Of a stretch of DNA of 64,000 nucleotides, positions 62,435 to 62,571 are shown piece after piece. The number at the start of each line of letters is the position of its first letter. The stretch's first letter is position 1. A program made the position numbers and the translations under genes. The notes below the pieces were generated by a model. The model was not told the origin of the DNA, did no database searches, and worked only from the letters and a program-made list of their open reading frames with translations. Source of the DNA: Escherichia coli (GTDB lineage Bacteria > Pseudomonadota > Gammaproteobacteria > Enterobacterales > Enterobacteriaceae); NCBI RefSeq assembly GCF_003334405.1, contig NZ_QOWM01000007.1. The stretch is one strand, 5' to 3'.

Positions 62435-62480
62435 TGCATCTCACCTTTTCACTTCATATCCGGCAAAACTAAGAAATTTT

Positions 62481-62495
62481 CCAGGTTTTGCCTGG
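62481..62495. promoter_or_regulatory. UhpA-binding inverted repeat in uhpT promoter
   Basis: ccaggttttgcctgg (CCAGG-N5-CCTGG) about 80 bp upstream of uhpT ATG. Confidence 0.6.
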
Positions 62496-62571
62496 ACGCT
62501 ATCTCAGGCCTGATTTGCTGCTGATTTTTACAATGCATGCCTCACGCAGGTATTCATTTCAGGAGTAACCC

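Follow-up and report, generated by a model that had tools for sequence, protein, structure and literature searches.

The CCAGG-N5-CCTGG inverted repeat in the uhpT promoter from Escherichia coli: probable junction of two UhpA sites

The uhpT locus and its intergenic repeat

By RefSeq annotation, the E. coli DNA considered here (the window, a single stretch of 64 kb) carries the gene order ilvB-ilvN-uhpA-uhpB-uhpC-uhpT-adeD (Table 1), and the 137-bp intergenic region between uhpC and uhpT is the home of the inverted repeat CCAGGTTTTGCCTGG. UhpC senses external glucose-6-phosphate, and UhpB then phosphorylates the response regulator UhpA. The promoter of uhpT is a classic model of activator-dependent transcription; UhpT is also one of two entry routes for the antibiotic fosfomycin, and changes in its promoter can affect resistance. 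The closest relatives of UhpA in the PDB are DesR, NarL, and DevR, and no solved structure of UhpA, alone or with DNA, is among the PDB entries searched. Of 5426 complete E. coli genomes, 5417 contain the 261 bp around the repeat, with an identity of at least 99% in 5181 of them; the flanking genes in the matching genomes are named uhpC and uhpT by RefSeq, which bears out an earlier note on this DNA that had assigned the site to the uhpT promoter.

The repeat consists of CCAGG-TTTTG-CCTGG at 62481-62495, exactly as the earlier note gave it, and its arms lengthen to 6 bp (TCCAGG/CCTGGA, 62480-62496). It begins 46 nt past the uhpC stop codon and lies between 91 and 77 bp upstream of the ATG of uhpT; its centre (62488) lies 84 bp upstream, so that the distance of about 80 bp first quoted was a fair one. 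Both arms are Dcm sequences (CCWGG), CCAGG at 62481 and CCTGG at 62491, and the intergenic region has no others (the window holds 170 in total). By its statistics alone the repeat is weak evidence. The exact CCAGG-N5-CCTGG pattern occurs once in the window, where 0.02 copies are expected from dinucleotide shuffles and 0.11 from the real frequencies of its arms (76 copies of CCAGG and 94 of CCTGG); when the 137-bp intergenic region is shuffled, 68% of the shuffles contain some perfect 5+5 inverted repeat with a spacer of 0-12 nt, and 24% contain a 6+6 repeat. Since the repeat on its own is statistically unconvincing, the case for it must rest on other evidence, and it is conservation that lifts it above chance.

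Other features of the locus lie outside the intergenic region (Table 1). The full-length match to istR, an Hfq-binding antitoxin RNA, is the sole Rfam match between 56000 and 64000, and no Rfam family was matched at the repeat. Within uhpT codons 379-392 there is a FliA (sigma-28)-type promoter, in agreement with the published promoter of UhpU-L, a small RNA derived from the 3'-UTR (PMC12704781). A GC-rich hairpin that starts 19 nt past the uhpT stop codon and is cut by the window end is presumably the uhpT/UhpU terminator.

Table 1. Features of the uhpT locus. Positions are those of the window except for the last row; negative numbers are relative to the uhpT transcription start.
Feature	Position	Strand	Description
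istR	56492-56621	+	full-length Rfam match (RF01400), upstream of ilvB; 150 bits, E = 5e-32
uhpA	59013-59603	+	NarL/FixJ-family response regulator; RefSeq annotation
uhpB	59603-61105		RefSeq annotation
uhpC	61115-62434 (stop codon end = 62434)		RefSeq annotation
CAP (CRP-cAMP) site aaGCGTGAtgcatcTCACcttt	62427-62448		centre 62437.5 = -103.5; conserved half-sites; numbering anchor
11-nt inverted repeat GCGTGATGCAT / ATGCCTCACGC	62429-62439 and 62537-62547		91% complementary
UhpA strong-binding (S) region	62461-62491 (-80 to -50)		reported limits; holds dyad AAAACTAAGAAA-T-TTTCCAGGTTTT, 62465-62489, centre 62477 (-64)
UhpA weak-binding (W) region	62491-62509 (-50 to -32)		reported limits; CCTGGAC-gcta-TCTCAGG = CCTG-N10-CAGG, centre 62499.5 (-41.5)
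Candidate half-site U0	62469-62475	+	CTAAGAA
Candidate half-site U1	62479-62485		TTCCAGG; reads CCTGGAA on the - strand
Candidate half-site U2	62491-62497	+	CCTGGAC
Candidate half-site U3	62502-62508		TCTCAGG; reads CCTGAGA on the - strand
Dyad at -64	62477		6 of 12 pairs complementary in at least 80% of rows; mean complementarity 0.65
Dyad at -53 (the repeat)	62488		6 of 12 pairs complementary in at least 80% of rows; mean 0.54
Dyad at -41.5	62499.5		4 of 12 pairs complementary in at least 80% of rows; mean 0.43
Palindrome TCAGGCCTGA	62504-62513 (-37 to -28)		perfect, 10 bp; at the -35 position
-10 hexamer TACAAT	62529-62534	+	invariant in 78 of 78 distinct promoters
uhpT transcription start (+1)	62541	+	inferred, about 2 nt uncertainty
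uhpT	62572-63963	+	hexose-6-phosphate:phosphate antiporter, the regulated gene; ORF and RefSeq annotation
FliA (sigma-28)-type promoter TAAAAAAGCGATTGGCGCTGCCGAT	63711-63735	+	within uhpT
Hairpin GCCCGGC-atgac-GCCGGGC	63982-64000	+	past the uhpT stop codon
Extra leader segment	L001 2389-2500, L002 2389-2500, L034 2378-2500, L035 2376-2500		between -10 and uhpT ATG; positions in the locus named

Conservation of the promoter across genera

The uhpT loci of 80 species representatives were collected and their upstream regions aligned, giving 78 distinct promoters from more than 20 genera; these include Escherichia, Salmonella, Citrobacter, Klebsiella, Raoultella, Kluyvera, Enterobacter, Lelliottia, and Leclercia, and further Cedecea, Buttiauxella, Pantoea, Rouxiella, Brenneria, Dickeya, Aeromonas, and others. 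For numbering, the centre of the CAP site was set to -103.5, which puts +1 at a base that lies 7 nt past the -10 hexamer; on this scale the repeat is centred at -53 and runs from -60 to -46, its left arm covering -60 to -56 and its right arm -50 to -46. The target of CRP is an inverted repeat that has its centre at -103 and lies upstream of the UhpA site, and transcription of uhpT requires UhpA (PMC5352689). Of the two CAP half-sites, the left one (GTGA, 62431-62434) is the same in 75 of 75 promoters; in the right half, TCAC at 62441-62444, C62442 is invariant and the other three positions are kept in 66-74 of 75. No -35 hexamer is recognisable 17 bp upstream of the -10 hexamer, and a sigma-70 consensus scan gives no complete promoter; the missing -35 element fits an activator-dependent promoter.

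Two further symmetries were seen among these elements. An inverted repeat with 11-nt arms, 97 nt apart, pairs the left CAP half with the region of the transcription start (GCGTGATGCAT / ATGCCTCACGC) and may be due to chance. The perfect palindrome at the -35 position looks incidental: its left half TCAGGC alone is conserved, and its right half falls in the variable segment from -31 to -22.

The 78 distinct promoters share one sharply bounded conserved block, 62465-62509 (-76 to -32). Conservation per column collapses at -31, right after 62509, and dips within the block at 62483 (-58), 62488-62490 (-53 to -51), 62497, and 62501. The block is free of indels in all 76 complete rows of the alignment, and within E. 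coli 5245 of 5322 matching genomes show 100% identity over a 49-bp block that holds the repeat. The limits of the conserved block coincide with those of the UhpA-protected region, reportedly -80 to -32. Spacing is equally constant: 26 nt separate the CAP site from the block, at its S side, in 75 of 76 rows, and 21 nt separate the end of the block, at its W side, from the -10 hexamer in 79 of 80 rows; in contrast, the leader between the -10 hexamer and the uhpT ATG ranges from 34 to 117 nt. A rigid CAP-S-W-(-10) spacing across genera is what a face-of-helix mechanism predicts.

The leader itself is about 65-78 nt longer in Escherichia sp. E1V33, E. whittamii, Raoultella terrigena, and Enterobacter sp. 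10-1. The extra segment is alike across these three genera (..TTTCCCAAAATAATTCAAGTTGCAGGAA..GCCTGAAGTATGAAGGGAAA..) and is missing from E. coli and most other species; a search of it against Rfam gave only matches far below threshold, to V_AS5 (26.5 bits, gathering score 96) and Ysr49.

Within the repeat, nine of the ten arm positions keep the same base in 70-78 of the 78 promoters, and both arms are clearly under selection. The tenth, 62483 in the middle of the left arm, varies more than any other base of the block (A in 8, C in 60, T in 10; n = 78). The form found in most genera is CCCGG-N5-CCTGG; CCTGG-N5-CCTGG occurs in Escherichia whittamii, Escherichia sp. E1V33, and several Pantoea, and the perfect CCAGG-N5-CCTGG in 7 of 79 species, namely E. 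coli, E. albertii, and five species of Buttiauxella only. The central pair 62483/62493 is complementary in 14 of 78 promoters, where about 11 are expected if the two columns vary independently; compensatory change at this pair is thus not above expectation in these promoters. Because the central pair is complementary only near the chance rate, conservation bears on two CCNGG elements a set distance apart and not on the palindrome as such. The left arm is CCCGG, which is not a Dcm sequence, in 60 of the 78 orthologous promoters, so that only a few lineages have a pair of neighbouring Dcm sites in the UhpA region.

The repeat as the probable junction of two UhpA sites

UhpA has a strong site and, adjoining it downstream, a weak one, and its binding is stimulated by phosphorylation (PMC4790336). 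In published accounts (PMC4790336, PMC5352689), phosphorylated UhpA takes the strong site and then the weak site, and activation is enhanced by CRP at -103.5. The repeat is almost certainly part of this UhpA-binding region. To that extent the description of it as a UhpA-type site in the earlier note stands, in that it lies inside the conserved block that matches the UhpA region; that the repeat is the recognition unit itself is not supported, its perfect form being lineage-specific and its central pair complementary in only 14 of 78 promoters, with the four outer pairs conserved.

The symmetry of the block was examined by a scan of every possible centre over 74 gap-free rows, with 12 pairs for each centre. 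The scan brings out three dyads, their centres about one helical turn apart (Table 1). The best conserved centre across species is that at -64, which is also the centre of the longest inverted repeat of the intergenic region, GGCAAAACTAAGAAA / TTTCCAGGTTTTGCC, with 15-nt arms that are 80% complementary. Aeromonas has the most divergent promoter of the set (57% identity over the block), and its segment aligned to the -64 dyad is a perfect palindrome, AGAACTAGGAA-aaa-TTCCTAGTTCT, in which 11 of the 12 pairs around -64 are complementary. In Dickeya and Brenneria the -64 dyad keeps 9 of 12 pairs, and the 5-bp core of the repeat is there reduced to 3 of 5 and 1 of 5, respectively. The -41.5 dyad has four pairs that are complementary in at least 89% of rows.

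The strong UhpA region is said to extend from -80 to -50 and the weak region from -50 to -32, limits that are attributed to Dahl et al. in 1997 and to Olekhnovich and Kadner in 2002, and Merkel et al. reportedly described in 1992 an inverted repeat centred at -64 in the uhpT promoter. The strong footprint, reportedly centred near -65, would end at -50, where the right arm begins. The arms of the repeat presumably sit either side of this strong/weak boundary, the left arm in S and the right arm opening W, so that the reported footprints would cover the repeat without being centred on it. Binding had been placed upstream of the -35 region by the earlier note; the region does lie between the CAP site and the -10 hexamer, but the UhpA region reportedly reaches -32 and so overlaps the -35 position.

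It is reasonably probable, from the alignment and the reported footprints, that the repeat occupies the centre of a UhpA region made of two dimer sites, S and W, and marks their junction. The region would contain, on a single helix face, four half-sites that resemble CCTGGA (U0 to U3 in Table 1), which we infer to form two dimer sites: U0 and U1 would face each other to give the high-affinity S site, centred at -64, and U2 and U3 would face each other to give the low-affinity W site, centred at -41.5. The reported repeat would then be U1 plus U2, the back-to-back junction of S and W, centred at -53. Phosphorylated UhpA would fill S first and then spread cooperatively over the junction to W; UhpA at W would overlap the missing -35 element and, together with CAP at -103.5, recruit RNA polymerase. 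Activation of uhpT reportedly depends on the C-terminal domains of the alpha subunit of RNA polymerase and of sigma-70, a result credited to Olekhnovich and Kadner in 1999, and the overlap of W with the -35 position fits this dependence. Two dimer sites with the repeat as their junction are preferred because face-to-face and back-to-back half-sites cannot both be served by a symmetric dimer and because the strong footprint reportedly stops at -50; the halves of the repeat thus probably belong to two neighbouring UhpA sites rather than to one. Nowhere else in the window do three CCTGRR hexamers of alternating orientation fall within 49 bp, CCTGRR being a motif that was chosen after viewing the sequence. 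Against the junction, the -53 dyad is almost as conserved as the -64 dyad (6 of 12 pairs each), and the repeat core is more symmetric than the S core in most Enterobacteriaceae. CCWGG is itself palindromic, so the orientation of the half-sites is read only from their flanks and from a few divergent species, and the spacers of S and W differ by 1 bp.

The main alternative, possible but rather unlikely, is that one UhpA dimer occupies CCNGG-N5-CCTGG at -53, this being the core site or else the central member of an array of three dimers (-64, -53, and -41.5). Four protomers arrayed along one helix face, with contacts of another type between U1 and U2, are also conceivable. A distance of 10 bp between half-site centres suits a helix-turn-helix dimer (the NarL 7-2-7 site has 9 bp), the arms are highly conserved, and the helical-turn spacing of the three dyads speaks for an array. 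The core of the repeat is complementary at 4-5 of its 5 pairs in 68 of 76 rows (4 of 5 in 57 and 5 of 5 in 11); the S core reaches only 2-3 of 5 pairs in 70 of 76 rows, and most of the symmetry of S comes from its A/T flanks. In addition, four species carry G at 62493, and each of them carries C at 62483, so that the repeat there is a perfect CCCGG-N5-CCGGG. This alternative has to contend with the near-chance complementarity of the central pair, and with the decay of the -53 core in the most divergent promoters (1 of 5 in Brenneria, 2 of 5 in the L064 group), where Aeromonas retains its perfect -64 palindrome. The back-to-back arrangement at -53 is moreover the opposite of that at -64, and the same symmetric dimer could not fit both; the S/W boundary reportedly falls between the arms at -50, and the strong footprint near -65 and not at -53.

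That the perfect palindrome is a coincidence without significance of its own, two conserved CCNGG elements having become complementary in E. coli through a single C-to-A change at 62483, is improbable as a complete explanation: it agrees with the junction reading and is largely contained in it, and it concerns the perfection of the palindrome only and not the function of the arms. In its favour, 62483 is the most variable base of the block, sister Escherichia species have T there, which gives CCTGG-N5-CCTGG, and shuffling readily produces short inverted repeats. It is very unlikely that the repeat serves in RNA and not in DNA, as a hairpin that terminates or stabilises the uhpABC transcript at its 3' end. 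The repeat does follow the uhpC stop codon at a distance of 46 nt, and the + strand folds into a 7-bp stem of -10.6 kcal/mol (z = -2.6 against shuffles); yet in most species the stem would carry a central C-U or U-U mismatch, with a median of -5.0 kcal/mol in orthologues versus -10.0 in E. coli, there is no compensatory pattern, and conservation reaches far past the stem on both sides. An intrinsic (Rho-independent) terminator was rejected, since the hairpin is present but no run of T (U in the RNA) follows the stem on the + strand; a terminator-like site is found on the - strand only, where no gene ends.

If the repeat is the junction of S and W, the C-to-A change at 62483 (-58) in E. coli and E. 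albertii would have made that junction a perfect palindrome and would have created a second Dcm site beside the first. Dcm methylation could then tune cooperative UhpA occupancy, and hence uhpT induction and fosfomycin uptake, in a lineage-specific manner; this idea is speculative and very unlikely to be right, but if true it would put 5-methylcytosines in both half-sites flanking the junction where UhpA spreads from the strong to the weak site.

Comparison with known systems

NarL sites of the 7-2-7 type (TACYYMT-N2-AKRRGTA) are bound by a regulator of the same family and likewise present inverted half-sites to a helix-turn-helix dimer, with 9 bp where the repeat has 10 bp. The uhpT half-site differs from them in being CCTGGA-like and not TACYYMT, and in a spacing of 5-5-5 (or 7-1-7) instead of 7-2-7. 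A NarL-type 7-2-7 site was rejected for the repeat: direct reading of 62479-62497 shows no TACYYMT, arms of 5-6 bp, and a spacer of 5 bp.

Lux boxes and the RcsB box are bound by dimers with FixJ/LuxR-type helix-turn-helix domains. The W element, CCTG-N10-CAGG, has the geometry of the LuxR-type lux box (CTG-N10-CAG), and the S core, CTAAGAAA-T-TTTCCAG, is similar to the RcsB box (TAAGAAT-ATTCCTA) with one extra central base. The regulators and targets of these boxes differ from UhpA and uhpT, and the likeness is a lead only.

The closest comparison is the E. coli uhpT system itself, for which the UhpA S and W regions have been described at the same locus and in the same sequence (work attributed to Merkel 1992, Dahl 1997, and Olekhnovich & Kadner 2002). 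The biology of the repeat is already known and is textbook uhpT regulation; the earlier note had said as much, and we agree that UhpA control of uhpT is long described. That system reportedly comprises a strong region with a -64 dyad and an adjacent weak region, where the earlier note instead framed the repeat as one unit. Nothing found here alters the accepted picture of uhpT regulation. What the comparison across genera adds is an independent reproduction of the limits reported for the UhpA region from footprints, a demonstration of the rigid architecture from the CAP site via S and W to the -10 hexamer, and the view that the perfect palindrome is a lineage-specific by-product of neighbouring half-sites and probably not a single recognition unit. 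With CAP at -103.5, a promoter that lacks a -35 element, and dependence on UhpA, the system described here differs in nothing of substance from the known one.
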